Shown piece by piece: positions 1-22,773 of a DNA stretch of 23,282 nt (the first letter of the stretch is position 1; every line of letters begins with the position of its first letter). Under the pieces are notes generated by a model. The model ran no database searches, was not told the DNA's origin, and saw only the letters and a list, made by a program, of their open reading frames with translations. The stretch lies in NCBI GenBank assembly GCA_003166335.1, contig PMWA01000032.1:1-23282 (forward strand), given 5' to 3'. The position numbers and the translations under genes are program-made. This DNA is from Methanobacterium sp. (GTDB taxonomy: Archaea > Methanobacteriota > Methanobacteria > Methanobacteriales > Methanobacteriaceae).

Positions 1-2
1 GT

Positions 3-287
3 CCTTTAATGTTCCCTTCGGATGCAGATATGACTCCTGATATATGGGTAGATGATGCGTTAGTTGTATCTAATAATAATTTATTAGTTGAAGGGAACGA
101 TGCATATTTAACAGCGGGTACTAGTGAGCGTGGTCCTCAGTTTGGTCCTTCAGACGTTGATCCAGAAATTCCTTTATATATTACTTCCATTTGTCAGGTA
201 GGACTTAATAGTCTTAATTTTGTAATTTTGGATTACTGGGGTGATCGGATAGGTTGTAGTCCTCTTTATGTTGTTCTTAATGATTGA
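3..287 (+). CDS. 5'-truncated putative viral tail/adhesin protein (C-terminal beta-rich module)
   Basis: The frame is open from the window edge, so the first ATG at 9 is probably internal. It carries the module DDA..ITSICQxGxN...IGCSPLYVV, which occurs twice in the next gene, and lies upstream of the lysis genes. Confidence 0.55.
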   Translation, partial: PLMFPSDADMTPDIWVDDALVVSNNNLLVEGNDAYLTAGTSERGPQFGPSDVDPEIPLYITSICQVGLNSLNFVILDYWGDRIGCSPLYVVLND

Positions 288-320
288 AAAAATAGAAATT
301 TAATATAGGAGAAAAATTTC

Positions 321-1589
321 ATGGTTGGAACTTATCTTGATTGGAGTATTGGCGGTTTAGTACCTACTTGGATTGTTGATGTGAAATGGGGTTTCGGAGG
401 AGCTTCTAGTAGTTCAGGTTCTAGTGCGGGAAGAGCAGATAGTACGGTTACGCTTCATTGTGCTACTAAGACAAGAGATGAAATTGAAACATTTAAAACT
501 TTAATGACACCGGTTTTTACTAATACTAATCTATTGAATGGTGGAACAGATTTACAGGTTACTCCAGATGGTCAAATATTAACTATTGTGAATGGTTCTT
601 ATACATGGAATGGAATCATCTCAAGTGTTCAATTCGATGAAGATGAATACGCTACCATTGATGGGGATGCTGCGATTGAATTTGATATTATATTAGAATT
701 GCAGAGAGGAGCGGGTGCTATTAGTGAAAATGTTGCTTGTGTTCCTGCTCAGATGACGGATAATGCTATTCAAATCAGTGCTGGATTCGATCAGCCGGAT
801 CAGATGATAGGTGAAAAGATTGATTTGGGAAGTACGCCGGGTGGAGTTACGATTAATGGAGATTTTAATACAGGGTGTGTTTGTTTTAATTGGGATGGAA
901 CTGGTAGAGTATTTATAGTTTCTGATCCAACTGCTGATCCGACTACTAATACTATTTTTACTGATGATGCGATGACTGTTACTAATAAAACTAATAGTCA
1001 AAGTTTGTATGCAACTAGTGGAAATGTAGGGAATGGTCAAGCTCAATATCCTGCTCCGGAGATAACTTCAATTCTTCAAGCGGGAAATAATTGTGTAAAT
1101 GTTGTAATTCAGGATTTATATGGTGATTTAATCGGTTGCAGTGCATTATATATTGTGCAATATGAAGGTACTGGAAGTGGTTTATCAAGTGGAACTGGAA
1201 CAGGAAGCGGTTCAGGTTCTGGAGGTTCGGGTTCAGGGAGTAATTTGGTTAAAGTGCAGATTACAGCAGGATTTGCTAGTACTACAGAAGTTCAGGGGAA
1301 TGATTGGAATGTAGGAAAGTTTACTTTTAATTGGAATGGTCAGGGAAAGATTTATTTAGCCAGTCAGCAGGAAGTTTCGAATCCCACCTTGGATTTTATT
1401 CAGTTCTTCGAAAGTGCTACCATAGCAGGTAATTTAGGTGCTATTGCCACCGGTAATAATGTTATTCCTGATTTTGACATTACTAGTATTTGTCAAACAG
1501 GTAATAACACTATTGATATTACAATTCACAGTTCAGGTAATGCTACTATTGGTTCGGGTCCTTTGTGGATTATTCAGATAAATTCTTAA
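321..1589 (+). CDS. Putative viral tail/receptor-binding protein: N-terminal beta domain plus two tandem modules joined by a Gly/Ser linker
   Basis: 422-aa ORF with an AGGAGA RBS; G/S/T/N-rich; internal repeats FNW(D/N)G.G...ITSI(L/C)Q.GNN...IG..L(Y/W)I; GSG linker at ~1168-1240; followed by a T-rich terminator. Confidence 0.6.
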   Translation: MVGTYLDWSIGGLVPTWIVDVKWGFGGASSSSGSSAGRADSTVTLHCATKTRDEIETFKTLMTPVFTNTNLLNGGTDLQVTPDGQILTIVNGSYTWNGIISSVQFDEDEYATIDGDAAIEFDIILELQRGAGAISENVACVPAQMTDNAIQISAGFDQPDQMIGEKIDLGSTPGGVTINGDFNTGCVCFNWDGTGRVFIVSDPTADPTTNTIFTDDAMTVTNKTNSQSLYATSGNVGNGQAQYPAPEITSILQAGNNCVNVVIQDLYGDLIGCSALYIVQYEGTGSGLSSGTGTGSGSGSGGSGSGSNLVKVQITAGFASTTEVQGNDWNVGKFTFNWNGQGKIYLASQQEVSNPTLDFIQFFESATIAGNLGAIATGNNVIPDFDITSICQTGNNTIDITIHSSGNATIGSGPLWIIQINS

Positions 1590-1592
1590 AGG

Positions 1593-1612
1593 TTTTTTTA
1601 TATTCTTTTTTT
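1593..1612 (+). terminator. Oligo-T archaeal terminator after the structural gene
   Basis: T6 and T8 tracts directly after the stop at 1589. Confidence 0.4.
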
Positions 1613-1665
1613 GAAGTTAATAAGGTAGATATGAAAACAACATTTTTAAATTAGTTAATCCATGT

Positions 1666-1875
1666 TTAATCCTCTAAAGTTAATCCTATTGTATCTTGAA
1701 GTCTTAAGAAGTCTTCCCAATCCAAAAAAATATAATATTCCATCTCCTCATAATTACTAGATTCAAATTTAAAACTTGTCCCTTCTTCCATTATCTTATC
1801 AACAGTTTCTTTTAATTCATCATAATCCTTAAAAATTAATTTAATCGTGTCTTGTGTCGGATAATCATGTTCCAT
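1666..1875 (-). CDS. Small acidic hypothetical protein (69 aa)
   Basis: Lies within ORF 1666..1962. The ATG at 1875 (MEHDYPT) follows GGGGTGA; alternative starts are at 1917 and 1962. Confidence 0.6.
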   Translation of the reverse strand: MEHDYPTQDTIKLIFKDYDELKETVDKIMEEGTSFKFESSNYEEMEYYIFLDWEDFLRLQDTIGLTLED

Positions 1876-1904
1876 CCCCAAATCACCCCTATTTTTACCC
1901 TTTT

Positions 1905-2000
1905 TTAATCTGGACATTCTCCTTCTATTAATCGTCTTCCCATAAAATTTTCCCTTTTCCATGAAAATAACTCGTTAAAACTAATCAATTCTTTAATCAT
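1905..2000 (-). CDS. Possible 31-aa micro-ORF (MIKELISFNELFSWKRENFMGRRLIEGECPD)
   Basis: Fills the gap between co-oriented small ORFs; the RBS is weak. Confidence 0.3.
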   Translation of the reverse strand: MIKELISFNELFSWKRENFMGRRLIEGECPD

Positions 2001-2012
2001 AAATTCAAATTC

Positions 2013-2150
2013 TTACCCTAAATCACATTTGCGTTTGTTTATCTTTAAATCTAGGGTATAGAATTCAATTTTATGATTTATTTTCTTTTTAAGATGATTT
2101 AATTCTTCAGAAGTTAATGAATCATCTACATCAAAACATAACTTGCCCAT
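2013..2150 (-). CDS. 45-aa hypothetical protein (MGKLCFDVDDSLTSEELNHLKKK...)
   Basis: Manual translation; AGGAGA RBS; starts 2 nt after the stop of the AbrB-like ORF. Confidence 0.55.
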   Translation of the reverse strand: MGKLCFDVDDSLTSEELNHLKKKINHKIEFYTLDLKINKRKCDLG

Positions 2151-2152
2151 TT

Positions 2153-2281
2153 TTATTTCTCCTTCCTTACTATCACATCAATCCAGTCCCCTTTTTTAGC
2201 ATTAATAGCTCTTAAAGTGTTTTTTGGAACATAAATTTTTAAATCATCTTTTACTTCGACTGTTATTCTAGCTTCTTTCAT
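2153..2281 (-). CDS. AbrB/MazE/SpoVT-family DNA-binding microprotein (42 aa)
   Basis: Manual translation MKEARITVEVKDDLKIYVPKNTLRAINAKKGDWIDVIVRKEK fits the swapped-hairpin pattern V..D..I.(I/V)PK..R.....GD.(I/V).V; GTGA RBS. Confidence 0.75.
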   Translation of the reverse strand: MKEARITVEVKDDLKIYVPKNTLRAINAKKGDWIDVIVRKEK

Positions 2282-2300
2282 GTCATCACATCAGTTGAGA

Positions 2301-2335
2301 TTTGTTATTATGTTATATTAACAGTTATTAAAACA
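2301..2335. promoter_or_regulatory. Divergent promoter region with repeated TGTTAT boxes
   Basis: TGTTATTA (2303), TGTTATAT (2311), AGTTATTA (2323) and the palindrome TGTTA-TAT-TAACA (2311-2323) lie between divergent operons. Confidence 0.4.
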
Positions 2336-2357
2336 TTAGTAAAATGGAGGTAAAAAC

Positions 2358-2573
2358 ATCACAGACGAGTTTAAAGAATTAACAGAAACTGTTTTAGATG
2401 CTTATAAAACAAAACCTGAAAAAATAAGCTTAATAACTAAAATCAAATGTTTACTGAACCGACATGTTTGGGAATATCACAGAGACACCCAAGGAAACAC
2501 ATATCGAATGTGTATTTATTGCAACAAAATAGAAGAGAATATTTGGACTCCCAATTGGGGCGATTATGTATGA
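2358..2573 (+). CDS. Phage-type Zn-binding small protein (C-x4-H...CxxC; DUF1660-like) with an apparent ATC start
   Basis: GGAGGT at 2346-2351 is followed after 6 nt by ATC. An in-frame TAA at 2340 leaves no upstream ATG. The translation contains KCLLNRHVW...RMCIYCNK, and the stop overlaps the next ATG (ATGA at 2570). Confidence 0.65.
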   Translation: MTDEFKELTETVLDAYKTKPEKISLITKIKCLLNRHVWEYHRDTQGNTYRMCIYCNKIEENIWTPNWGDYV

Positions 2574-2785
2574 TTTTCGCAAATAAAATGGAAACTGTAC
2601 AAATACAAATTGAAGAAAAAGGGGAAAACTGGATACTCTATATTAATAAGACTGTAAATGAGTTTAAACGTGAATTACAGAATTATAAGGATGATATTTT
2701 AATGGGGAATTGTAAGAAGTTTAGAATTATGGATTTTATTGAATATTTAAGGAAGAATGGCTATGATGTCATGTTCATGCAATAA
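2570..2785 (+). CDS. 71-aa hypothetical protein
   Basis: 3' part of ORF 2447..2785; the ATGA overlap with the upstream gene favours a start at 2570. Confidence 0.6.
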   Translation: MIFANKMETVQIQIEEKGENWILYINKTVNEFKRELQNYKDDILMGNCKKFRIMDFIEYLRKNGYDVMFMQ

Positions 2786-2787
2786 AC

Positions 2788-2809
2788 GAAACTTTTAAGG
2801 AAAAGTTTC
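2788..2809. repeat. Perfect 9-bp hairpin GAAACTTTT-aagg-AAAAGTTTC
   Basis: Inverted repeat seen directly between the small ORF and the lysis genes. Confidence 0.6.
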
Positions 2810-2830
2810 ATCAAAAAAAGGTGAAAGTAA

Positions 2831-3547
2831 ATGGTAACTTATAGACCTGTTTGGATCGCATCAGACATTATTTATAATGCTGAAACTGATGCAAAGAATA
2901 TTGAACTAATTGTGAATGGACTAAAAGTTAGAGGAATAAAGGCTAATGGATATCCAAATACCGGAGCTGATTCACATATTAACGTTTTAAGTGATGCGAA
3001 TGTAGAATCAAATGCTCTAATAGTGGATGTTTATGGTGGAATGGATCCGGGATGTATATATGAGAAGGCAAATGGCTGGTATAAACGAACATTAGGGGAA
3101 CGAAAAGATTCTATAGTTTATATTTTCAGCCACAGTACGATGCCACTGATAACTAATAGATTATGGTTGGCACGGGATAAAACAGATAATTATGACAAAG
3201 AATGGTTTACAGGTATAGCCCACCCAGATGAATACTTAGAAAGTAATGATGTGGGTTATATTGAACATGTAACAATACCTGCTGATTTAGCTGCTATTGT
3301 TGAATTTATTGCTGAACAGGCTGCTTTGGTGCCAATTTCATTAGATGAAACCCAAGTTCAAGAGGGAATAGGTCGAGTAAACACGTTTTATAATAAATAT
3401 AATAGGATTCCAAAAACGATAAGTTTCCCGAATGAAGTTTTATCATTTACTGATTTTACTAGATTAATTGACTATTATGGTTTGAATTACAATTTCCTAC
3501 AATACGGTATGACCAGTGTAATAACCGAACCAGCTACCGGGGTATAA
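2831..3547 (+). CDS. Pseudomurein-binding-repeat protein with an N-terminal alpha/beta domain (lysis-associated)
   Basis: GGTGA RBS. The C-terminal motif RVNTFYNKYNRIPKTISF resembles the PMB repeats of the next gene. The N-terminal SD.I...ALIVDVYGG...WL.R..DN...F.G.A.PD.YL pattern is recalled from Methanobacteriales cell-wall proteins. Confidence 0.65.
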   Translation: MVTYRPVWIASDIIYNAETDAKNIELIVNGLKVRGIKANGYPNTGADSHINVLSDANVESNALIVDVYGGMDPGCIYEKANGWYKRTLGERKDSIVYIFSHSTMPLITNRLWLARDKTDNYDKEWFTGIAHPDEYLESNDVGYIEHVTIPADLAAIVEFIAEQAALVPISLDETQVQEGIGRVNTFYNKYNRIPKTISFPNEVLSFTDFTRLIDYYGLNYNFLQYGMTSVITEPATGV

Positions 3548-3550
3548 GGA

Positions 3551-5089
3551 ATGACTGTAATCAACTGTTTAATTTATAACGGTAGCCATGCAGCTCAAGA
3601 TGATGTTCAAGGTACCATAAACGCTTTGAATACGCCAGATTTTAAAGTCAATTTATCGGGAACTATAGATGCAAAATCATTAACAAGTGATATAAATGTT
3701 TTATTGATACCTGGTGGGGATGGAGGATTAACATATTTACAATGTGGTGATTTTAATGAAAAGGATATCCAGGATTTCATATATAATGGTGGAGCAGGAT
3801 ATTTTGTTTGCGCTGCCAGTTATGTTGCCGCTAAACAAGCGGTAGGGGTTAAAAATTATGTAGGTTGGGGTGTTGCACCTACTGTAATAGCCAACGGATT
3901 AACCGACAATGAACCCAACGGACTGCTCATTAAGGTTTTAAATATATTAGGAATCAGTGGATTATTCACTATAAATCATTTCCAGGGACCGTTCTTTACA
4001 GATCCAACCAATACTATGACCGTTTTCGCGACTTTTGCAGATAACCAAACAGGACATGAAGGAGCAGCTGCTATTGTTGGAGAAAAATATGGTAAAGGAT
4101 ATTCTGTTTTAAGTAGTGTTCACCCTGAAAATAAAGAATCAACTTATACTTTAGTTCAGAATTTAGTTAAACTAGCTAATAATGGAGGTAATAGTGTGAC
4201 AAGTTTTGTAATACAAGATTTAGAGGATGCTGGAAGTAGGGTAAAAAGTTGGATTGAAACTAATAAAAAGTTACCTGCTTATGTGGCAATTAAGGGATTA
4301 AATGTTCTAATGCCTGATTATTTGTATTTAATGACTGGTTTACTCGTTACAGGAACTACAATAAATACAATGGCAGTTAAAACTCCGATAGCAACAACTG
4401 AAAACTTCAAGGCTGGAACTCTAACCAAAGCAGATTATGAAAACATGGCTTTGAGAATTAAAAATTATATCGAAAAATATGGACAAGCACCCGCCTATGC
4501 ATCAACATCATTAGGTAATATGCCATTTGAAGATTTGATTTATAATTTCAGTCGAATATGGGCTGTTGCAATACCAGCATCTATAAGCTGTACTCCTTTA
4601 TCTGCTCCAATTATTTCAGCAGGATATTGGGAGCAATTAGAAAAAGGAACCGGAAAAACATTTAACAATTTAACAGCCCTTACACTTGCAGTGGAAAAAT
4701 ACTGTACATACAATGGTTATTTCAATAATCAAAAAACATTCCCTCAAGAGCTACAATCATTAGAAGATGATATGAATGGAAAGGATAATGGAATAGTTGA
4801 TGAGGATAACTGTGTAGACTTTGCGGAATGTTGTACAAAACTTGCCCGTGAAAAAGGTTATGGTGCTACCTTATATGGTGTTTATTGTCCTGTAGAACAG
4901 ATAAACCATGCAGTAGTGCATGTAACTGGTGGAGAGTTTGTTAATAATACATGTGTGATTAATGGACAAACTTTATCAGGTATTATTATAGACTGGGCTA
5001 AATTAGCTAGTGATGGAGGAGCTATTGGAACATTTTGGTGTGATATTAACCAGGCAACTGAAAATCCGTCATGGCTTCCCTATGAATAA
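3551..5089 (+). CDS. pei: Pseudomurein endoisopeptidase (peptidase C71, PeiW/PeiP-like) with PMB repeats, fused to an N-terminal BPL_N/class I glutamine amidotransferase-like domain
   Basis: N-terminus: LIYNG, LLIPGG, IQDFIYNGG, nucleophile elbow C87, HPE (H191/E193). Middle: PMB-like repeats RVKSWIETNKKLPAYV and RIKNYIEKYGQAPAYA. C-terminus: NCVD (C421), H453, D481, WC...NP.W. Confidence 0.8.
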   Translation: MTVINCLIYNGSHAAQDDVQGTINALNTPDFKVNLSGTIDAKSLTSDINVLLIPGGDGGLTYLQCGDFNEKDIQDFIYNGGAGYFVCAASYVAAKQAVGVKNYVGWGVAPTVIANGLTDNEPNGLLIKVLNILGISGLFTINHFQGPFFTDPTNTMTVFATFADNQTGHEGAAAIVGEKYGKGYSVLSSVHPENKESTYTLVQNLVKLANNGGNSVTSFVIQDLEDAGSRVKSWIETNKKLPAYVAIKGLNVLMPDYLYLMTGLLVTGTTINTMAVKTPIATTENFKAGTLTKADYENMALRIKNYIEKYGQAPAYASTSLGNMPFEDLIYNFSRIWAVAIPASISCTPLSAPIISAGYWEQLEKGTGKTFNNLTALTLAVEKYCTYNGYFNNQKTFPQELQSLEDDMNGKDNGIVDEDNCVDFAECCTKLAREKGYGATLYGVYCPVEQINHAVVHVTGGEFVNNTCVINGQTLSGIIIDWAKLASDGGAIGTFWCDINQATENPSWLPYE

Positions 5090-5213
5090 AATTTTACTTT
5101 TTTTGGAGGTTATGAAATTTATGAAATCACATCCAAGTGTAAAACATCCATATAAAAAAACTAAAAAGTTCTATAATTAGTTTTTATTTCTTTAAACATT
5201 GGATTATTTTTTG

Positions 5214-6833
5214 TCAATCTTTTGTAATGGTAAGATTGTCTATGTTGATATTTGTGTTATTTCCGATTTCAGAATAATAGATATTGTATCCATCCGAAAA
5301 TGTTATTGTTTCTACATTGATTTGAGATTGCAACTCCTGTAAATAATTGAAATTATCGGTTGCGCCAAAATTAGAATTATCAGTTACCATCCATATTATA
5401 TATTTTGTTGATGAATTTAGAATAATTTGATTATTCTGAGGATTAATATCGGTGCTTTTATGATTTTTATAATATATAATAGATTGATTTGTTTTTCCAG
5501 ATACGTTGTATCGGAGGTTAGTTAAAGATTCATAATTAGTGTAATAGTACATATATTTTCTCCAATCATCTTCATTTGTGAAAAAAATCAATGTATCGTT
5601 TGGATTAAAGTCGTTTAATGATTCGATAAAATATTGTGTAGTTAAATCTTTTGATTGTATATTCCCATAATCGATTCCTTTAGGATTAGGTGAAAGTGAA
5701 GTAAATTGTGTGATACTAAAAAATACACATAAAACAAGTAATAATATTATTAAATAATTTGAAGGGATCCCTTTAATTTTTTTATTCAAATTTGAAGAAA
5801 AATTAACAATTACATAACTAATTACCAGGACAAAGACTGGTACATAAATTAAAGTATAACCAGGTTTTGGTATATAGATTAAGAAATAAAAAAGGAAGGA
5901 AGGAAATATCCATAATATTAAAAAGATTGCCTTGCTATTTCTGAGGATAGATAAAGTGAATTTATTAAAATTTAAGGCAATGTAAATTGATAAAATAAAA
6001 ATACTTAAAATACCTATTCCATCTAAAGTCCAACTTAATAAAGTATAATCCATCATCAACTGACTTTGGAGGTTTGCACCAAAAAATATTGATGAACCTC
6101 CAAATGCAATCAGCCAAACTTTTTTAGTAACTTGGGAATAATTTAGATAACCTCCAGATAAAAGTATGGTGGGAATATACCAAAAGAGTGCAAATTCAAT
6201 TAGAACAATAAAGGATTTAAAAATCTTTTTATAATCAAAACCCTGATAAATTAGACAGAAGAACCATAATGGAAACATTAAGAATATAAGATCTGATCTA
6301 AAACCTCCAGATAAACCTAGAGCAATAGCTGATATATAAATAAATCGATTATCACCCTTTAACATTTGATATGAGGTATAAGCTATTAAAGTTGCAAATA
6401 AAGCTTCACCCATATAGATTGTGGAAGTTTCTCCATAAAACCAGAAAATAGGATTAAAAATAAGCAATACGGACGCAATAATGGCTATTTTTCTTGAAAA
6501 CATCTGTTTTGCCAGGAAATAAACCAAGAAAACTGTTAAAATACTGAAAACGATACTGATAAATACCATTGAAGTGTTAGGATCATTAAAAACAATGTTA
6601 ACAATCCTTCCCAAAGCTATAAAGAGGATATAGCCTGGTGGTTGTGGTTGATCTAAGTAAATATTAAAATTCTGGAATGCTAATGCATAACTAACAGCAT
6701 CTCCATCATACAAAAATTTACTTGCAAAAGGGATTCTAATTAAAAGAATCATAAAAAATAAGATAAATAGAATTACAAGGTCAAATCTTTTTGTTAAAAA
6801 ATTCCTCAACTTACCAATATTAATATTCCTCAT
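5214..6833 (-). CDS. GT-C fold membrane glycosyltransferase (PMT/ArnT, GT39/83-like)
   Basis: 539 aa with many TM segments; DGDAVSY and QPPGYIL in loop 1; LVYFLAKQMFSRKIAIIASVLLIFNP; soluble C-terminal domain. Confidence 0.8.
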   Translation of the reverse strand: MRNINIGKLRNFLTKRFDLVILFILFFMILLIRIPFASKFLYDGDAVSYALAFQNFNIYLDQPQPPGYILFIALGRIVNIVFNDPNTSMVFISIVFSILTVFLVYFLAKQMFSRKIAIIASVLLIFNPIFWFYGETSTIYMGEALFATLIAYTSYQMLKGDNRFIYISAIALGLSGGFRSDLIFLMFPLWFFCLIYQGFDYKKIFKSFIVLIEFALFWYIPTILLSGGYLNYSQVTKKVWLIAFGGSSIFFGANLQSQLMMDYTLLSWTLDGIGILSIFILSIYIALNFNKFTLSILRNSKAIFLILWIFPSFLFYFLIYIPKPGYTLIYVPVFVLVISYVIVNFSSNLNKKIKGIPSNYLIILLLVLCVFFSITQFTSLSPNPKGIDYGNIQSKDLTTQYFIESLNDFNPNDTLIFFTNEDDWRKYMYYYTNYESLTNLRYNVSGKTNQSIIYYKNHKSTDINPQNNQIILNSSTKYIIWMVTDNSNFGATDNFNYLQELQSQINVETITFSDGYNIYYSEIGNNTNINIDNLTITKD

Positions 6834-6949
6834 ACAAATCTTATCTTATTATTTAATCATTTATATATCCAATCCCCAGCAAAACAGATTTAATTCTTAA
6901 ACCTTATTAAGTATTGAATTTTAGCTGAAATATTTATGAATTCTAATTT

Positions 6950-7104
6950 TTCAAGTTAATAGTAATCTATTGACAGTTAACAGGTGAATATTCATCTACT
7001 AAATCTTTATAGGTGACTATACATTTATTGAATCATGATAAGTGTATATTCATTTATTAGACCTGAATAAGTGTACATAAATTTATTAAGTTAGAATAAG
7101 TGTA
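6950..7104. repeat. Tandem array of 5 full and 1 partial degenerate 29-bp units, each containing a ~22-bp imperfect palindrome (AATARGTG-N6-CATYTATT)
   Basis: The ARGTG/AAGTT core starts at 6953, 6982, 7011, 7040, 7069 and 7098, an exact 29-bp period. Confidence 0.75.
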
Positions 7105-7145
7105 ATCTCCTTTTTTTAAAATTTTTGCATGTATGGAATGTTAAA

Positions 7146-7340
7146 ATGAATATCCTCCTACACGTGGGATGGAATATCAGCAAATGGTTACTCATCTCTC
7201 CCGGGTTTATCCTAGTTTTCTGGAAGATTCTCTATATAACACTATTTCAATTCAGCTTCTTGAATCTAATTACATTAATTTTATGGAGTAATATAATGGT
7301 TATTTTTTATTTAAGATTCTTAAGGAGAAACTATTTATGA
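7146..7340 (+). CDS. Possible 64-aa membrane peptide coupled to the CDF gene
   Basis: Hydrophobic ORF whose TGA overlaps the CDF ATG (ATGA at 7337); no clear RBS. Confidence 0.3.
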   Translation: MNILLHVGWNISKWLLISPGFILVFWKILYITLFQFSFLNLITLILWSNIMVIFYLRFLRRNYL

Positions 7341-8221
7341 ACCGAGAAAAAGCCGGGAATTCGGCTAATAAAAATGCCATTATTGGAAATATAATTCTCA
7401 CAATTCTTAATTTTGTTATAGGATCCTTAGCAGGATCCACAGCACTTGTCGCAGAAGCTGCCAACAACTTAGGAGATTGCCTCTCCACAGCCATATCATG
7501 GTTTGCCTTTAGGATTGGAAACCGAAAACCTGATGAAGAACATCCATATGGTTACGGAAGAATTGAACCGTTGATGAGTATTTTCATTGCATTATTACTG
7601 TTTTATGTAAGTTATGGAATTTTAACGGATGCTTATTCAAAGTTTATTACAGTTGGATCCTTGACAGCACCGAATTGGATAAGTGCAGTTATGGCGTTAA
7701 TTGCAGCGGTTATATGTTTTTATATGTCCAAAAACTTAACCAAAACAGGAATTAAAATTAACAGTCAACTGCTCATAGCTCAAGGTAATGAAAAAATGAC
7801 GGATGTATATGTAAGCATAACTATCTTTTGTGGTATTGTAGGAGCACACCTCGGATATCCTATTTTGGATCCAATACTCGCAGTAGTGATCGCAGCATTA
7901 GTTATTAAAGTTGGATTTGAAATGTTCCTGGAGAATATTGAGAACCTCCTGGGACATGTGCCTAAAGGTTTAACGGATAAAATTATGAAAGTTGCCTTAA
8001 GCGTTAATGAAGTTCGAGATGTAAGGAATCTTAAAATAAATACAGTTGGTCCAACCAATAGCTGTGAATTAGATCTCATATTAAATGATGAATCTAGCTT
8101 TGATGATGTATACGAAATCAGTAATAAAGTTGAAAGTGAGATAGTACGTTCTATTAATTTTATTAGCAGTGCATCTATTCATGTTGTGCCTGACACTAAG
8201 ATTATAACTGATGATTTTTAG
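7337..8221 (+). CDS. Cation diffusion facilitator (FieF/YiiP-like) metal efflux transporter
   Basis: GSTALVAEAANNLGD, KPDEEHPYGYGRIE, LDPILAVVIA, about six TM segments, and a C-terminal ZT_dimer-like domain ending in IHVVP; AGGAGA RBS. Confidence 0.92.
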   Translation: MNREKAGNSANKNAIIGNIILTILNFVIGSLAGSTALVAEAANNLGDCLSTAISWFAFRIGNRKPDEEHPYGYGRIEPLMSIFIALLLFYVSYGILTDAYSKFITVGSLTAPNWISAVMALIAAVICFYMSKNLTKTGIKINSQLLIAQGNEKMTDVYVSITIFCGIVGAHLGYPILDPILAVVIAALVIKVGFEMFLENIENLLGHVPKGLTDKIMKVALSVNEVRDVRNLKINTVGPTNSCELDLILNDESSFDDVYEISNKVESEIVRSINFISSASIHVVPDTKIITDDF

Positions 8222-8837
8222 CATTTTTATAAGTTAAATGAGCTTCTTCTTCATCCTCAAATAAGCCTAAATGTTTTTGTTTCCCATTTAGAAAAATATA
8301 TGCTCTCCATTTTTGAAGATTTTTATGCCATGAAACACCTTTATATTTACTAGTTTTTGGGAGTGATAATGTTGAAATTTCATTACCTTTTTTAATTTCA
8401 TTACAAGCCCAATCATAAGCTTTGGCTGCTTCTTTCTCGTTATCAAATGTTCCTAAATACTTCTTTTTTCTACTTATTTTTATTTGAGCAACCCATCTTC
8501 CAGTCCTATCGTCTAAAATAACACCAGGATATCTTGATCTTATAGGAATATGCAAATTTTGACTGTTTTCTCTAGGAGTAACTACCTTTAAATTTGATCT
8601 ACAATTATTTAATCCATTACCATCAATATGATCAATTTGCATATCTTTAGGTGGATCCATTATTAAACGATGCATCCAAATAAATGGATATTCATCTTTA
8701 ATAGGAGATACTCTACGGACATAATAACTTTTTCTTCTAGTTTTAATTGCATGCCATTTCCACTGGTTTAACCATTCATAATACTCATCATCAACTAAAG
8801 CAAATTGATTCTGTGTTAATTCAATCTTTTTAACCAT
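8202..8837 (-). CDS. HNH homing endonuclease with two AP2 DNA-binding domains
   Basis: ALVDDE, MHRLIM, IDHIDGNGLNNCRSNL...N, then two AP2 repeats (SRYPGV..W.AQI..KYLGTF..EAAKAY and SKYKGV.W..W.A.I..KHLGLF). Confidence 0.92.
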   Translation of the reverse strand: MVKKIELTQNQFALVDDEYYEWLNQWKWHAIKTRRKSYYVRRVSPIKDEYPFIWMHRLIMDPPKDMQIDHIDGNGLNNCRSNLKVVTPRENSQNLHIPIRSRYPGVILDDRTGRWVAQIKISRKKKYLGTFDNEKEAAKAYDWACNEIKKGNEISTLSLPKTSKYKGVSWHKNLQKWRAYIFLNGKQKHLGLFEDEEEAHLTYKNAKNHQL

Positions 8838-8925: not shown

Positions 8926-8981
8926 TATTAATTATTTGTTTATAGTTATATAAATATTTTATTCATTAGAGATGATTAATA

Positions 8982-9116
8982 ATGAAATCAAGAATTTATT
9001 TAATGGAATGCCCAGATTGCGGCCATGAATTAAGAGATAATCATATCTCAACACGCTGCCATAAATGCAAAACTGGTAAATATGATATAATATTCGAATA
9101 TCCAGGAGAAATTTAA
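8982..9116 (+). CDS. CPxCG-type one-domain zinc-finger microprotein (44 aa)
   Basis: Manual translation MKSRIYLMECPDCGHELRDNHISTRCHKCKTGKYDIIFEYPGEI, with two CxxC motifs. Confidence 0.75.
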   Translation: MKSRIYLMECPDCGHELRDNHISTRCHKCKTGKYDIIFEYPGEI

Positions 9117-9117
9117 A

Positions 9118-9189
9118 ATGCTCCATAGATTAAAAAAATGTCCACATAACCCCTGTAACTGCCAGCAACGAGGAAAAATTATAAAATAA
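9118..9189 (+). CDS. 23-aa Cys-rich basic micro-ORF, possibly truncated
   Basis: MLHRLKKCPHNPCNCQQRGKIIK; AGGAGA RBS inside the upstream gene; 1-nt gap after its stop. Confidence 0.4.
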   Translation: MLHRLKKCPHNPCNCQQRGKIIK

Positions 9190-11261: not shown

Positions 11262-11777
11262 ATGGCTGTGTTTGATATAGAGAAATTTAAAACTATTATT
11301 CATTTTGTAGTAGATAACTGTGAAGACAAACCAAATTTTGGGAAAACAGTTTTATTCAAATTATTATATTTTTCTGATTTTAATTTCTATGAATTATATG
11401 AAGAAAAATTGACTGGTGCAGACTATGAAAGACGTCCATTTGGTCCTGCACCCCTAAAACCAGAATTTGATAAATCCATAGAAGAACTCGAAGAAGAAAA
11501 CGCAGTAATTCAAAAGAGAGTAGATTTTGATGATGAAGTTTATCAATTCCGTTATTTTTCATTAAAAAAACCAGATATACATAATTTATCTGAGGAAGAG
11601 GTAGAAGTCATAACTAATGTTATAAATAAATGTTCTGATATGTCTGCTACTAGGATAAGCGATTATTCTCATGAAGATCTTCCCTGGCAAGCTACAGAGA
11701 CAGGTAACATTATAGATTATGAACTAGTTTTTTATAGAACACCGGAGTTTTCAGTGCGTGAGTATGAGGAAGATTAA
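11262..11777 (+). CDS. Panacea-domain antitoxin (DUF4065/SocA/GepA-like)
   Basis: KTVLFKLLYFSD, Y.RRPFGPAP and SATRISDYSHEDLPW motifs. Confidence 0.88.
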   Translation: MAVFDIEKFKTIIHFVVDNCEDKPNFGKTVLFKLLYFSDFNFYELYEEKLTGADYERRPFGPAPLKPEFDKSIEELEEENAVIQKRVDFDDEVYQFRYFSLKKPDIHNLSEEEVEVITNVINKCSDMSATRISDYSHEDLPWQATETGNIIDYELVFYRTPEFSVREYEED

Positions 11778-16645: not shown

Positions 16646-19600
16646 CTTTTATTTGCTGGAGCAATGGATTAATTTTATTTATGCTTTCTTCGAATTCCTT
16701 TTCAAGAAGTTCTTGAGTTTTTCTTTTTGTAGTATCTACTTTTTTCTTGTTTAATTCAGCTAAGAAGTCACCAAAATATAATTCATAATATTTATCGAGT
16801 TTTTGTGAGAAATTTTCAACATGATAAGTACGTTGTAACCAGTCTTTAAATCCATTAATTTCAGCTACTAAACCTTTATTAAGAAAGAGCATTTTATCAG
16901 CTTTTTCAATATATGGTTTTTGTTTAATGTCCTCTATTAGTTTAATTGGGAGCCGTTCAACATATTTCTTGTTTAAATCAAAACGTTTACCTTCTAATGT
17001 ACTTCCTAAAAATTTAAATATAAAATTTAAGGTTTTTGAAGAAGTAAAACTCCTAAATATTTGAGGTTAATAGTATCCGAAGTTATAATGTAACATTTTT
17101 GATTAGTATAAAATCCACTATCATCAAAAGCAACAAATAATTTCGGCGCTATATTTGGGTAAATTAGCTTTTCTTTTTCAAATTCAGCATAATAATCAGA
17201 AGCATATCTACTTAAAGCAAACCAATCAACACGACCCGCTTTTACTTCAGGTCGTTTTTCAAGATTAGATTTAAATTTAGATAGATGATCTTTAATTGAT
17301 ATATATTCATCAATCGGAAATCTCCATGGAATATACAGGATATATAAATCTTTATAATTTATTTCCCATTTTTTAATATCCCTACCTCTTAAAAGAGACT
17401 TTATAACATCTTTACTTTTAGGATCTTTTTTTATTAGTTCATTTCTTACTTTTCCATCAATTACAAATGCATCATTATAACCACTTAGTAAACCTCTATA
17501 AAACCCTAAACCAGAAATATCTTTTATAAAAGAAGAATTAGCATTGATTTTATCTCTTAAATCAAGAACTTCAGGTCTTTCAAAACTCCAAGAAGTAACA
17601 TCTAATCTATTTTGCTCTAATTCAAAATCATTATCCACTAAAATATTATTATCATTGTTAAATCCATTTTTAATTATAAATACTGATGAATGAACAGTAG
17701 CTCCTTCAAACACTTTATCCCAAGTATGATCAACATATCGCTCAAAAGAAGTACCAGTCATGATTAATTCACGTAAATTTTTACCATAATTAGACTTTAT
17801 AAACTTATTAGAAGAAATATAACCTAATTTACCATCATTTTTAGTATTTGAAAACCTTTTTCAAAGAAATAAACATATAGATCAGCAACACCAGTATAAG
17901 TTTTATAGTGTTCCTTCAGATACGGTTTTATCTCTTTAATCTTCTCTTGCCGTACATAAGGTGGATTTCCAATCACTACATCAAATCCACCTTCCTTGAA
18001 AATTCCTGAGAATTCTTTTTCCCATTTGAATGCTTTGTCTCCAGCATATTCTGGGTAATCGATAAGTGAATTTCCACATTTTATGTTGTTATCCAAGTTA
18101 GGTAATTTTAATCCTTTTTTACATACTTTTAAGAAGAGTGATAGTTTAGTTATTTCCACTGATTCTTCGTTTAAGTCAACTCCGAAGATATTTTGAAGTA
18201 GGATTTCTCGTCTTTTTTCGATGGCATCAAAAACAATTACCCCTAAGTCAAAGTGTTTAATAGATTCTATTTTTCTTCTCTTTCCTTTACCAACTTTAAT
18301 ATCTGTGGTAGTTGTGTAACCCATCTTAAAATCATATATTGCATTATGGATTTCTAATAGAACATCGGCGGCTTTATTTAGGAAAGCACCGGATCCACAT
18401 GCAGGATCTACTATTCTTATTTTTTCAAGTTTTTTATCTAACTTTTCGAGTTCAGTAGGGGACCATGAATATTCTCCAATCAATTCATCAACAGTATTAG
18501 AATTTCCAGATTTACTTAAATAAGGGATAATAGTATTCCTGCAAATGTAATCGGTTATATACTGCGGCGTATAGAAAATTCCTTCTTTTTTCCTTCGACC
18601 TTTAACATCTGCTTTGAGTACTTCCAGGTCTCCAATAGAATTCTCAAAGATGTGACCTAGAATGTTAACATCTAGTTCTGACGAAAAGTCAAAAGATGAA
18701 ATAATCAGTAAATTCTTATAAATAGGATTTACTTTATTGGCATGAGGTACCAGCATTTCATTAATACTTGACTCATATTCTTCAAAATTCCATTCCTGCC
18801 ATGCATCTTTAAAGATTTCTTTATCAATTACTATGTCACGGATTTTGATGAAATCTAAATCCTCCTCAAATAAGCCACCATTATAAGCTGAAATATGTTT
18901 AAACTCGTTTCCTTCATTAATGTCTTCGAATAGTTCATTTAAACGTTGCCAAATACTATTATGTCTTAAGTTTCCCTGTCTTATAGGAGTAATGATTGTA
19001 TTCGAAGAAATTTGACCAATAAGTAAACCAGCGTCTTCAGCAAACGAAATGAACATGTATCTGTTAAGAATTAATTGAGCATAATGAACAGCATCAACCC
19101 TATTAAAATCATTAAATTCCTCTAATTCCTTTATCAGCATCATCCGAGTTTCATGAAATAATTTATAAAAATTATTTTCTAACTGCCTTTCAATTACTAA
19201 AGTTTCTTCAAGTAATTTCACAGGATACTCATTATTTATGTATGATTCTTTAGAAAATGCAAGCATAAAATAACAGAACTTCTCACTATCAAACAAATCC
19301 TCATAATTAAAACAAATCCACTTATCACTCTTCTTACCATAATTATACAGTCTAAATTCCTTAAAATTCGAAACAAAAATCCAATCAATATCACCAGTAT
19401 GTTGCGCATAATCAAAAGCCTGATCCACAGGAGTTCTCTTATCATTGAATCTATGCTGGGGTTTATCCAGATCCGATGTTTGGTCCTTGAGCTCAATGAC
19501 CATAAATTTTTTATCACCAGACTTCAATGCAAACTCGCTTTTACCCCTTCCAGTGCCCTCTTTCTCACTAAACAGGATATTCTTTTCACGGTCATATCCA

Positions 19601-19779
19601 AGGATCTCTTTTAGAAAATCATAAAAATAAAGATAATTGCTCTCTTCGGATTTAAAATCTCCATTTTCAAACATTTCCGTGTGTTTCTTAATGAACCCAT
19701 GTTTAGATATTGTTAATTTAAATGCCTTATTCTGGGCATATTTTTTCATCAGGGCCTGGTTGAAAAGATTATTTTTCAT
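16563..19779 (-). pseudogene. Type IIG (Eco57I-like) fused restriction-modification enzyme, frameshifted
   Basis: N-terminal nuclease (SEFALK..IELK, Q..DYA), DPACGSGAFL (motif I), NPPY (motif IV) and a TaqI_C-like TRD. Split into ORFs 17824..19779, 17027..17761 and 16563..16892 by single-base losses at ~17840 and ~17042. Confidence 0.88.
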
Positions 19780-19870
19780 GGATGATCTTAATGTTTAAGT
19801 CTTAGAATTTAATAATTAGTTTATGTTTTTCAGTTGAATACAATTCTGATAATTTTGCTTTGTATGTATA

Positions 19871-21472
19871 TTATTCAAATTTAAGTTTTTCTAAATAGTT
19901 ATAAAGATCGTCGACTGATTTGAAATCATATTCATCTCCAAGTTTAATAAGTTTAAAAATTACTTCTTGGACAACGATAGATAAATCAATCATATCATTT
20001 ACTGATACAAAAACATCTCCATTATGTACAATTTGACTTCTTATCTCGTAAAGTTCTTTTAAACCCTTAAAATAATTTATTCTATCTTCATATTTATCAG
20101 CTAAAAGAAAAGCAGTTCGTTCCGCTAATTTATCGGTTATTGATTCATTTTTTTTAACTAATACTGATTCCAATGCATTAGATAACTTAAGAAATTTATC
20201 ACCAAACTTAAAATATCCTAAGTTTTCATGCTTTTTAGCCCTTCTTTCAAAAATTTCTTCATTTTCTTTTTTTATATTTAGTTTAGTATTACAAGATTCT
20301 CCAAACCAGTAAATTGATGTCAACAAACTATCTTGAAAATTATTTTTATTAGGATTTATTAATATATTATCTAAGATATTAAAACCCCAATTAGACATGA
20401 GATTTAGCCTATCTTTGTCTATTTTAAAATTAGGCAATGGGCCAAGAATTTCGTAAGGTATTCTCATCCGATTGTTGTTATATCCAATTAAAATTCTAGA
20501 ACTTTGTGAAATAATTTCTCCTTTTATTCCAAAATAATCATCCTCTAGATAACTATAAAGTTTGATAACATTTATTGCTAATCTGATTTTACTTAAAGCT
20601 AATTGCTTCGCACTTTCAAATACACCCTTTACTTTTGTTATTGCTACAATATCTTCATCTTTTATTTTTTCCACATCTTTTACTGCATTATTATAAGTTT
20701 CAGGTTTTTCTTTATCGGTTATAGATTCATTTTCAAAAATAAGTTTGTGAAGTACATTTTTAATCTCATCCTTAATTTCTCCATAATTACAAAACGACAC
20801 AGTACCTATTTCCAAAGAATCATCTAAAGATAAATGCTGTATAGGAGCTACAAATGTCCATTCTTGTTTTTCACTTAAAAAAGAAGATTTTAAATTCTTT
20901 AATTTTTTATCAATAAAAACATCCCTCTTATCTTCTTCCAAACCCATAGCTTCAGATAAAACAAGATATAATTCGTTTTCAATTACATTTTTTATGATAT
21001 TAAATTTTATATAATCATCATTCCTTAATTCATCTATAGCTTTATTAAGTTCAGCATATCCTTTAGAACTTAATAAAACTACAATTTTGGTCTTTTTTGA
21101 CCAAAATAAATTCCCACGTTCTTCTAAATTTCTTTGGTATTCTGAGTTATTACATATTTTTAATAAAGAAATTTTAACTTTTTCTAAGTCTGCTCCAGGG
21201 ACTGTCAATAGCCAGCCACAGTTTTTTAAATAATTAACTGTTTCATTAATTTCGTTCAAAGCGTCAGTAGATACATCTTTTATCAGAAATTTGCCTGTAA
21301 TCACCTTTTTTGAAGAATCATGACCCAATATGAATTTTAAGTTATTCAATTCTTTTTTTATCAATTCTAATTCTATTTTATCATCATAAACTGCTTTTAT
21401 TTCAATAATACCAGTATATTTCCGTTTTTTTGGAATTTTATAATCTACTGAAATAATTTCTTTTTCTACCAT
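19871..21472 (-). CDS. ApeA-like HEPN-domain protein (putative anti-viral RNase)
   Basis: C-terminal LSNALESVL...LAERTAFLL...LYEIRSQIVHNG (R-x4-H); ATG at 21472 follows GGGTG. Confidence 0.8.
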   Translation of the reverse strand: MVEKEIISVDYKIPKKRKYTGIIEIKAVYDDKIELELIKKELNNLKFILGHDSSKKVITGKFLIKDVSTDALNEINETVNYLKNCGWLLTVPGADLEKVKISLLKICNNSEYQRNLEERGNLFWSKKTKIVVLLSSKGYAELNKAIDELRNDDYIKFNIIKNVIENELYLVLSEAMGLEEDKRDVFIDKKLKNLKSSFLSEKQEWTFVAPIQHLSLDDSLEIGTVSFCNYGEIKDEIKNVLHKLIFENESITDKEKPETYNNAVKDVEKIKDEDIVAITKVKGVFESAKQLALSKIRLAINVIKLYSYLEDDYFGIKGEIISQSSRILIGYNNNRMRIPYEILGPLPNFKIDKDRLNLMSNWGFNILDNILINPNKNNFQDSLLTSIYWFGESCNTKLNIKKENEEIFERRAKKHENLGYFKFGDKFLKLSNALESVLVKKNESITDKLAERTAFLLADKYEDRINYFKGLKELYEIRSQIVHNGDVFVSVNDMIDLSIVVQEVIFKLIKLGDEYDFKSVDDLYNYLEKLKFE

Positions 21473-21690
21473 TCTTACACCCAATTAACTAAATTTAGAT
21501 CAAAAAACCTTTATGTATTAAAGTAAACATTTGGAATTTTTCTAAAATGTTGGATATTGTAATATAATAGTGAATTTAGTAATAAATTTTATAATTCCTG
21601 TATTATAAAATTAGGCTAAAATCGCAATCTTTTCAGGTTGGTTGCATTTAACAAATAAAAAAAAACATTAATTTTTAATTTAAATTAGTC

Positions 21691-22773
21691 TTAAATATAA
21701 TGTTTCGCGGTGCTTTTTAGCTTTTCTGAGTGTTTATAAATGTCATTAAGATTATCTATGGTTACTTTTTCCTCTATTTTAGCACCACTTGCGCGTTTCT
21801 CTTGATTATCGAAGAATCCTACAGATTTTAGTTTTCGTGATTTAAAATGCATTCTACATAAAACTTTGTATTTATTATCATCAAGGAGAACACTACAATA
21901 ATTATGCCTGTTACGAATGAATACTCTCGCCGGGTCAATTAATTCACTGAGGATAGCTTTGGCAATATAATATCCTTCCCATTCTTCTTCAGTCGTGATG
22001 ATTTCACTTTTATCTCTTTTAAAATCAATGTCTTCTGTAGTTTTTTCTTCAGCGTTTTCGGAAGCTAATGCTTTTTCTAATCTCTCATCGACTCTATCCT
22101 TAATGAATTCATTTAATGCCGACTTGGTGATTTGAGCAAATTGAGTCTTGGCATTCTTAGTTAATGGACTAGAATATACTTTTTTAGCAAAAAATCTTAC
22201 AAAATCATCTGATGGATCTTTAAGTTGTTCTGCTAATATTTTTTTCATTTCATTTTTGTATTTTAACTCGCTAGCGGATGCTAAAATGTTTTCCAGGTCA
22301 AATGATGATTTTGTAAACTGTTTAAGCTCTTTTTTATCCGTATCTGTAACATTTCTTAAATCAATCTCAAAGAATGGTTTTTGGTCCATTTTGTTTGGTT
22401 CATCAATATCTGTATAAAATCTAAAAATAATTCCATTAGTTAAAATTCCAAACTTTGCTTCAGTAACAGAAAAATATCTATATAGTTGAGATGCATGTTC
22501 TTTATCCAGGTCGGTTTTTGTTGTCTTACATTCAATCAGTATGATGGGTTTGCCCTCACTCATAATAGCATAATCTACTTTTTCCCCTTGTTTAATTCCA
22601 ACATCTGCAGTGAACTCAGGAACAACTTCTGCAGGGTCAGTATGGTCATATCCCAAAACAAGCCTTATAAAAGGAAGTATAAAAGCAGTTTTTGTAGCTT
22701 CTTCAGTTTTTACCAGGTCTGATTTTTCAGATATTTTAAATGTAAGTTTATCAATTTCTTCTGACATCCCCAT
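21691..22773 (-). CDS. HsdR_N-like PD-(D/E)xK restriction endonuclease (COG4748-like)
   Basis: TEEATK..FILPF..LGYD, EVVPEF.ADVG.K.GEKVDYAI, IECK, QLYRYF, ILTNG. Confidence 0.85.
   Translation of the reverse strand: MGMSEEIDKLTFKISEKSDLVKTEEATKTAFILPFIRLVLGYDHTDPAEVVPEFTADVGIKQGEKVDYAIMSEGKPIILIECKTTKTDLDKEHASQLYRYFSVTEAKFGILTNGIIFRFYTDIDEPNKMDQKPFFEIDLRNVTDTDKKELKQFTKSSFDLENILASASELKYKNEMKKILAEQLKDPSDDFVRFFAKKVYSSPLTKNAKTQFAQITKSALNEFIKDRVDERLEKALASENAEEKTTEDIDFKRDKSEIITTEEEWEGYYIAKAILSELIDPARVFIRNRHNYCSVLLDDNKYKVLCRMHFKSRKLKSVGFFDNQEKRASGAKIEEKVTIDNLNDIYKHSEKLKSTAKHYI

Follow-up and report, generated by a model that had tools for sequence, protein, structure and literature searches.

A class I glutamine-amidotransferase fold at the head of a Pei-type methanogen provirus lysin: a candidate second wall-active module

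What does a domain with the fold of a class I glutamine amidotransferase (GATase) do at the head of a lysin directed against the wall of a methanogen? The question is raised by a 23,282-nucleotide stretch of Methanobacterium sp. DNA (hereafter the window), which is contig PMWA01000032.1 (C17) from base 1, in a genome of 2.49 Mb, 126 contigs and 99.4% completeness. An open reading frame (ORF) on the forward strand of the window, at 3551..5089, encodes a product of 512 amino acids plus stop, a candidate tailed-provirus endolysin. It is built of three modules: a BPL_N domain of class I GATase fold (residues 1-215, 3551..4195), two pseudomurein-binding repeats (PMBRs) and a divergent cysteine peptidase of the PeiW/PeiP type (Peptidase_C71-like, residues 345-512, 4583..5086), all on the plus strand. 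We consider it very likely that the gene is a provirus lysin with this architecture. For the N-domain the best single reading is that it is itself catalytic on the wall, which would give the lysin a second activity; from the analogies set out below we place this a little short of an even chance, and a gamma-glutamyl bond as its target would be less probable still.

Two of the modules are recognized directly by Pfam, each in two stretches: BPL_N (PF09825) with an E-value of 1.5e-11 and 44.2 bits for a cut-off of 24.2, and PMBR (PF09373) with an E-value of 2.3e-13 and 49.9 bits for a cut-off of 24.9. The best BPL_N stretch covers residues 5-96, and the best PMBR stretch is the second repeat, residues 288-318 (4412..4504, plus strand). 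The first repeat, at about residues 217-248 (4199..4294, plus strand), is visible as an internal repeat and corresponds to the best PMBR stretch (219-247) of the orthologue L010, which is also of 512 residues, aligns without gaps and scores 42.1 bits for BPL_N. No signal peptide was found, and the protein opens directly with the first beta-strand of the N-domain. An NCBIfam scan of the lysin and the neighbouring ORF returned no family. A sequence-only reading of this locus, made from the letters without any database search, had already named a BPL_N/class I GATase domain and PMB repeats, and these scans agree with it. Moreover, the residue numbers that it gave for two putative triads are all exact: C87 (in GYFVCAASY), H191 and E193 (SSVHPEN), C421 (DNCVD), H453 (INHAV) and D481 (IIDWA). 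On the plus strand, the codon of Cys87, the predicted nucleophile, lies at 3809..3811, those of the His191-Pro192-Glu193 (HPE) motif at 4121..4129, and those of Cys421, His453 and Asp481 at 4811..4813, 4907..4909 and 4991..4993, respectively.

Is the gene a viral one? By blastn, window positions 285-1590 and 3001-5112 align to a genome of the same genus, G058, at 71% and 81% nucleotide identity, and the G058 orthologue (L010) shares 90% protein identity with the lysin. Upstream of it on the same strand, PHROG profiles recognize TerS, TerL (phrog_979, E 3.9e-66), a portal protein (E 2.8e-37) and a head maturation protease, and the array further holds a tape measure protein of 1363 residues (E 8e-31) and a tail protein of 1002 residues. 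The orthologue is the last gene of this terminase-to-tail array, and the window gene is therefore a provirus endolysin by position; an endolysin had been proposed by the sequence-only reading. At 1 to about 5112 (1..5112, plus strand) the window holds a tailed provirus of which the contig start leaves only the right end, the last ~5.1 kb. A tblastn search of 50,697 phage records with the whole protein gave no match at E <= 0.01. Among the viral contigs of IMG/VR, the single protein gave 3 pattern matches and an alignment of ten sequences (A3) gave 111, none of which was confirmed; since no IMG/VR contig could be confirmed, the viral context is drawn from one related genome, G058. No tRNA was found within the window.

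Does the N-domain carry the fold and the residues of an amidotransferase? Residues 1-215 were searched against 1.84 billion representative sequences, which returned 161 proteins at E <= 1e-3, 48 of them at E <= 1e-10. In an alignment of 67 N-domain sequences (A1), G55, C87 and E193 are invariant, and P54, G56, G80 and H191 are among the positions conserved to at least 90%. With a local HMM, 156 domain instances from the representative search span the whole triad, and 150 of them keep the Cys, His and Glu together, the six others including copies within tandem-domain proteins. An AlphaFold model built on A1 has a mean pLDDT of 96.9 and a pTM of 0.93. With this model, the leading Foldseek matches are PdxT/Pdx2 glutaminases (2nv2_B, E 1.4e-9, TMq 0.71), ahead of PurQ, GatD and HisH, and VIA superimposes it on PdxT (2nv2_F) with Z 22.1 and a root-mean-square deviation of 2.2 A, 185/191 residues being aligned, and with Z >= 8 in 541 of 1000 chains. 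Furthermore, the A1 profile matches the PdxT-like structure 1q7r at E 9.4e-11, and pairs the GiCAG of the family, and with it Cys87 of the window protein, with GTCAG, and HPE with HPE. From these alignments and this model, the N-domain is predicted to be a genuine triad-type class I amidotransferase fold with its catalytic residues at the expected sequence positions, and the Cys87-His191-Glu193 triad announced by the sequence-only reading is indeed intact at the level of sequence. Among viral folds, a BFVD search with the N-domain found generic viral GATase proteins and a few proteins of uncultured phages, and no archaeal lysin.

The C-terminal module is less easily seen. The sequence-only reading had expected an HMM scan to return Peptidase_C71 along with BPL_N and PMBR; the latter two are there, and the relationship to PeiP and PeiW stands by profile and by fold, but Pfam Peptidase_C71 (PF12386, cut-off 22 bits) gave no match for the window protein at E <= 1. 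Direct searches with the single protein gave a weak PHROG match to 'pseudomurein endoisopeptidase' (phrog_37889, E 0.0035, residues 361-441) and a weak match to PeiW (8jx4, E 0.47) among PDB sequences, in which NCVD is paired with NCTD. When residues 345-512 were used as query, matches were found in 50 of 314 genomes of the host family, mostly in ORFs of ~270 amino acids. We scanned 12 proteins, namely 11 ORFs from these C-domain loci and protein P0004, and 10 of the 12 relatives pass the C71 cut-off (24.5 bits for P0004, 27.1 for L011 and 40 for L012), L015 (19.2 bits) and the 90%-identical orthologue L010 (17.4 bits) falling below it. The missing match reflects the detection threshold and not a structural feature. 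A Pfam C71 search of the window's own genome gave no match; control genomes were silent too, which makes this result uninformative.

Alignment of 24 C-domain sequences (A2) shows N420-C421-V422-D423, C446, H453, D481, W496 and C497 to be invariant. Its profile matches PeiP (8z4f) at E 6.3e-17 and PeiW (8jx4) at E 4.8e-14 among PDB structures, with C421, H453 and D481 aligned with the NCTD, GH and WD of PeiP. The C-domain model (pLDDT 85.7) agrees: PeiP 8z4f and PeiW 8jx4 occupy Foldseek ranks 1 to 5 (E 3.9e-7 to 5.9e-6, TMq 0.61-0.62, TMt up to 0.69), and the next entry behind them has only an E-value of 2.1e-3. A Cys-His-Asp triad is published for Peptidase_C71, as PMC2989375 describes. On profile and model, we read the C-domain as a divergent PeiW/PeiP-type peptidase with this published triad.

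Two further proteins show how freely the parts are recombined. P0004 (477 aa) is the closest C-domain relative outside the genus (55% identity), and its N-terminal ~310 residues differ, with no Pfam match in place of BPL_N and PMBR. P0003 (891 aa) joins GHL10/DUF4015-like, PMBR, C71 and transglutaminase-core domains. Module shuffling among these wall enzymes is extensive.

Is the N-domain a working part of the lysin? Nei-Gojobori dN/dS values against the G058 orthologue are 0.113 for the N-domain, 0.128 for the repeats and 0.093 for the C-domain, so that all three modules are under similar purifying selection. The company kept by the domain elsewhere was surveyed by a Pfam scan of 107 of its relatives, the 40 top ones and 67 further ones. 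PMBR was found in 16 of the 40 top relatives, a C39-type peptidase in 6 and a transglutaminase core in 3; among the 67 others PMBR was found in 2, C39_2 in 1 and C71 above cut-off in 1. Overall, 18 relatives carry PMBR and 11 carry a cysteine peptidase (7 C39-type, 3 transglutaminase core, 1 C71). The N-domain stands at the N-terminus of about 16 lysin-type proteins with a C71, C39 or transglutaminase domain at the other end. The same C71-like end is seen by alignment in P0007, P0010 and P0016, and C39-type ends occur in the close N-domain relatives P0002, P0005, P0013, P0032, P0044, P0065 and P0087. The N-domain of P0002 is 75% identical to that of the window protein, yet this protein ends in Peptidase_C39_2. 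In a FastTree phylogeny of 153 N-domain sequences (SH-like supports; P0001 and matches under 170 residues were left out), all rows linked to PMBR or to a peptidase fall in one clade of 57 (support 99), and a group of 16 (support 90) unites 14 of the 16 lysin-type rows, irrespective of the peptidase behind the N-domain.

The host also uses the domain. Two paralogues in its own genome have a hydrophobic, signal-like start, an Asn/Thr-rich linker, the N-domain (GICAGAY, S/PHPE) and two PMBRs, with no peptidase, and another genome, G074, holds similar secreted proteins in an ordinary chromosomal context. More distant relatives are coupled to a type IX secretion system (T9SS) sorting tail, fn3, Big_5, GH97, Peptidase_C69 or an N-formylglutamate amidohydrolase domain. 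The N-domain family is largely extracellular; in methanogens it goes with the pseudomurein wall, and in lysins it is the constant element beside wall peptidases that are exchanged. Since the family works outside the cell, as the secreted host paralogues do, a glutamine-dependent synthase partner is unlikely; by Pfam, no synthase partner domain lies within the lysin ORF, a separate synthase subunit not having been searched for. As far as these sequence comparisons go, the pattern of recurrence is what would be expected of an independent wall-active module, which is no proof of catalysis.

Among the relatives, pairs of BPL_N genes of ~450-475 aa that lie 14-28 kb apart in one genus (g10) were considered as provirus pairs; this was rejected, the G074 pair having signal-like starts and chromosomal neighbours. 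In another class (P0047-P0070, about 730-770 aa, up to 1196 aa), many proteins hold two or three BPL_N domains in tandem, and some of the tandem copies have no Cys (G/H/E in P0047 and P0080, for example). Their sequences suggest pairs of one catalytic and one degenerate domain.

How might such a lysin act? Pseudomurein is described as containing Glu-gamma-Ala-epsilon-Lys and a gamma-linked Glu on Lys (PMC10117817, PMC4592898), and the sequence-only reading was right to count gamma-glutamyl bonds among those of its peptides. The PMBRs would hold the lysin on the wall, to judge from the Pei family, and the C-domain would cut the pseudomurein peptide, probably at the bond opened by PeiW and PeiP, the Ala-epsilon-Lys isopeptide. 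Class I glutaminases use a Cys to attack the gamma-carboxamide of glutamine, with formation of a thioester. In the same manner, Cys87 would attack the side-chain amide carbonyl of a wall glutamate to give a gamma-glutamyl thioester; the amine partner released would be the Ala-epsilon-Lys of the stem or the Lys of the gamma-Glu-Lys link, and water would resolve the thioester. One lysin would then cut two different bonds of the same wall peptide. There is chemical precedent in Peptidase_C26 (human GGH, PuuD), whose Cys-His enzymes of class I GATase fold cleave amides of the gamma-glutamyl type, and with which the N-domain has no specific kinship beyond the shared superfamily. The two-warhead logic is that of the staphylococcal CHAP plus amidase endolysins, in which two catalytic modules and a wall-binding module attack two bonds of the wall peptide; there, the host wall is bacterial murein and the folds are different. 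In its widest form the proposal would make the methanogen BPL_N domains a new family of thiol enzymes active on the wall, with the gamma-glutamyl isopeptide bonds of pseudomurein as their target, the hosts using them in secreted, PMBR-anchored form for remodelling and the viruses as a constant first warhead beside a second one that is swapped (C71, C39 or transglutaminase-type). To us this wide form is rather doubtful.

Several observations weigh against a second activity of this kind. The small-residue nucleophile elbow G-x-C-x-G is not found in the window protein, which reads F85-V86-C87-A88-A89; relatives of the same architecture such as P0007 and P0010 have the canonical G-x-C-A-G. Of 179 filled cells at position 85, 164 hold G and 3 hold F; at position 89, G fills 173 of 177. 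The F-V-C-A-A elbow is common to the window protein, P0001 and the G058 orthologue; P0002 also has F85, but keeps a Gly at +2, and the F85 clade sits on a long stem branch (1.0 changes per column in the domain tree). A large side chain at -2 from the nucleophile might disturb the elbow, and the reading of a second activity is weakened for the lineage of the window by this unusual feature. Moreover, among solved structures the closest to the N-domain are subunits of glutaminases (PdxT, HisH) and not gamma-glutamyl hydrolases: Pfam Peptidase_C26 (PF07722) has no match in the window protein at E <= 1 or in the 107 relatives at 1e-3 or 1e-5, and the 50 VIA entries listed include no gamma-glutamyl hydrolase, which does not exclude that family. 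Experience with the founder of BPL_N also calls for caution. According to PMC12582158, the yeast biotin protein ligase retains the triad C89/H215/E217, whose residues are predicted to lie in the right places, and the enzyme produced no glutamate from glutamine in vitro; because of this precedent, an intact triad alone is no proof of the guessed chemistry. PeiW, PeiP and PeiR, as reported in PMC6189367 and PMC2989375, lyse cells without a GATase-like domain. Finally, BPL_N occurs in 83 of the 314 host-family genomes and in 7 of 27 genera: in 17/18 genomes of the window's genus and in 20/26, 28/32, 9/23 and 6/7 of four others, with 0/103, 0/26 and 0/24 in three large genera, the first of them (g19) being the largest of all. 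This patchy distribution makes the domain dispensable for pseudomurein as such, and BPL_N is an accessory function outside core pseudomurein synthesis. By the same counts, the idea that BPL_N is the missing universal cross-linking enzyme of pseudomurein was disfavoured.

What else could the N-domain be? It may be that the C71-like domain alone cuts, and that the N-domain is an extra module for wall or substrate binding, oligomerisation, folding or auto-regulation whose triad is a family legacy, an explanation that we regard as rather improbable. The atypical elbow and the long stem branch of the clade speak for it, as do weak matches of the relatives to the GATase-like ThuA, LBP_M and Glyco_hydro_42M, which are mostly non-catalytic modules. 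It would also fit the absence of glutaminase activity from the yeast triad, in a domain thought to contact the protein substrate (PMC12582158), and the fact that, in the account of PMC6189367, PeiW, PeiP and PeiR need no such domain. However, a pure binding module would need neither the Cys, His and Glu kept in nearly all instances nor the P-G-G of the oxyanion strand, which is kept too. The dN/dS of 0.11 also argues for a working domain, although a structural role would fit it as well, and so does the persistence of the triad within the F85 clade (window, L010, P0001 and P0002), weakly at 75-88% identity. Alternatively, the N-domain could be catalytic without cutting the wall, as a glutaminase or amidase on a small molecule or an amide group, or as a gamma-glutamyl transferase that edits or re-links wall peptides, as hosts do when they remodel their wall. 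Its nearest structures are true glutaminase subunits, among them PdxT, HisH, PurQ and the GatD of the peptidoglycan-amidating MurT/GatD complex; the secreted, PMBR-bearing host paralogues suggest a housekeeping role at the wall; and PMC10117817 treats the cross-linking and recycling enzymes of pseudomurein as unidentified, with transglutaminases only postulated. We nevertheless judge this unlikely: no synthase partner domain is present in the ORF, ammonia would be of no obvious use in an extracellular or lytic setting, re-linking makes little sense for a lysin, and an essential cross-linking enzyme would hardly be confined to 7 of 27 genera.

The doubt can also be turned on the gene itself, which might not be an egress endolysin at all and could be a virion-associated entry enzyme, or a host autolysin domesticated in a decayed provirus. 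The gene comes directly behind tail and baseplate-like genes, no holin was recognised, and the provirus is truncated at the contig end. Against this, the protein is free-standing, with 512 residues, wall-binding repeats and no tail-protein domain; it is under purifying selection and kept in two genomes. The published methanogen lysins are reportedly placed last in the late module, and the last-gene position seen here agrees with them. An origin of this sort seems to us very improbable. A wall-directed catalytic role of the N-domain in a provirus lysin is thus the reading that we retain, in the tentative terms given at the outset.

How new is the arrangement? To our knowledge, a GATase-fold module is not among the known lysin domains. 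No publication of the three-module architecture was found among open-access papers and bioRxiv, where viral gene annotations in supplements could mention the domain. The word 'amidotransferase' is absent from the methanogen-virus and lysin papers PMC9800368, PMC11375127 and PMC6189367, and the endolysins described in the MSTV1 paper are PeiW-like (C71) and PeiR-like (C39) only. The window lysin resembles PeiW and PeiP, also provirus or phage lysins, in having PMBRs ahead of a Cys-His-Asp peptidase of the same fold at the C-terminus. It differs from them in having two PMBRs instead of the four reported for them in PMC6189367, in its GATase-fold domain of 215 residues and in a C-domain too divergent for Pfam C71. 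With PeiR of the provirus phi-mru it shares two PMBRs and a C-terminal cysteine peptidase of clan CA, whereas PeiR, as described in PMC6189367, ends in Peptidase_C39 and not in a C71-like domain, and has no N-terminal GATase-like domain. The N-domain, for its part, has the whole-domain fold of PdxT/Pdx2, HisH, PurQ and GatD (Z 18-22), with the nucleophile Cys and H-P-E at equivalent positions. Unlike these triad glutaminases, with which it shares 10-19% sequence identity, it has F-V-C-A-A in place of the G-x-C-x-G elbow and no synthase partner, is fused to wall-binding repeats and belongs to an extracellular, lytic setting. The N-domain of the eukaryotic class III biotin protein ligases, the founder of BPL_N, belongs to the same Pfam family and keeps the Cys-His-Glu triad (PMC12582158); it is fused to a biotin ligase in the cytosol, and the domain of the window protein to wall-targeting and wall-cutting modules. 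The same source calls the role of the yeast triad unknown, in agreement with the orphan status that the sequence-only reading gave to BPL_N.

With its three modules, the window protein adds a new variant to the Pei-type lysins of methanogen proviruses. Pseudomurein withstands lysozyme as well as the hydrolases of bacterial walls (PMC4592898), and the characterised methanogen lysins in the papers cited here are PeiW, PeiP and PeiR only. As PMC4592898 and PMC6189367 describe, these have served for protoplast preparation, for cell permeabilisation and, in experiments, for the inhibition of rumen methanogens, and chromogenic substrates are in use for the Pei enzymes (PMC4592898). If the N-domain does cut the wall, a second and mechanistically different cutting module would widen the lysin toolbox and, for methane mitigation, would suggest lysins of greater potency or with less room for escape. 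It would also be the first GATase-fold endolysin module and the first enzymatic function for the orphan BPL_N, would offer the first testable substrate class for the Cys-His-Glu triad of this family, eukaryotic biotin ligases included (PMC12582158), and would point to the host enzymes of pseudomurein remodelling and recycling, which PMC10117817 describes as still unidentified.

The lysin may not be the only wall protein of its cassette. Immediately upstream, an ORF of 238 amino acids (2831..3547, plus strand) ends 3 nt short of the lysin ATG, and the same pair of genes stands in the same order in G058. It has no assigned family: no Pfam family was found, and its profile reached at best E 0.15 against PDB sequences. 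The C-terminal part resembles PMBR below threshold (19.2 bits), and H49, E78, D93, H101, D119, H131, D133 and E145 are invariant across 7 homologues (53-68% identity). In the ESM Atlas there are weak leads to GH25/Rv2525c-like glycoside hydrolase clusters (0.85-0.86, below the bar of 0.9). This ORF may encode a second wall enzyme or another component of the lysis cassette. Read-through from 2831-3547 into the lysin, with which it shares the frame at a distance of 3 nt, was considered and rejected, the two G058 genes being in different frames. In G058, the tail protein of 1002 residues (L039:12409-15414) has weak PHROG matches to 'tail protein with endopeptidase domain' and to baseplate hub proteins, and may be a wall enzyme that the virion carries, separate from the lysin at the end of the array.

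Behind the lysin the two genomes part. In the comparison of window 5113-6958 with G058 (L040), the G058 sequence resumes with matches to window positions 6959-7329 and 8981-9164, so that the window has extra DNA here, which includes a gene for a 539-aa PMT_2/TMEM260-like membrane glycosyltransferase (5214-6833, minus strand), a cation-efflux gene (7337-8221) and an HNH/AP2 gene (8202-8837). The provirus-host junction is variable between the window and G058. Further along, the window carries a defence-type gene cluster on the minus strand (17027-22773), which comprises an MmeI/Eco57I-like fused restriction-modification enzyme spread over two ORFs, one of 651 aa and one of 244 aa with the TaqI_C specificity part, and a 360-aa protein with an HSDR_N domain, along with a SocA/Panacea antitoxin-domain protein at 11262-11777.

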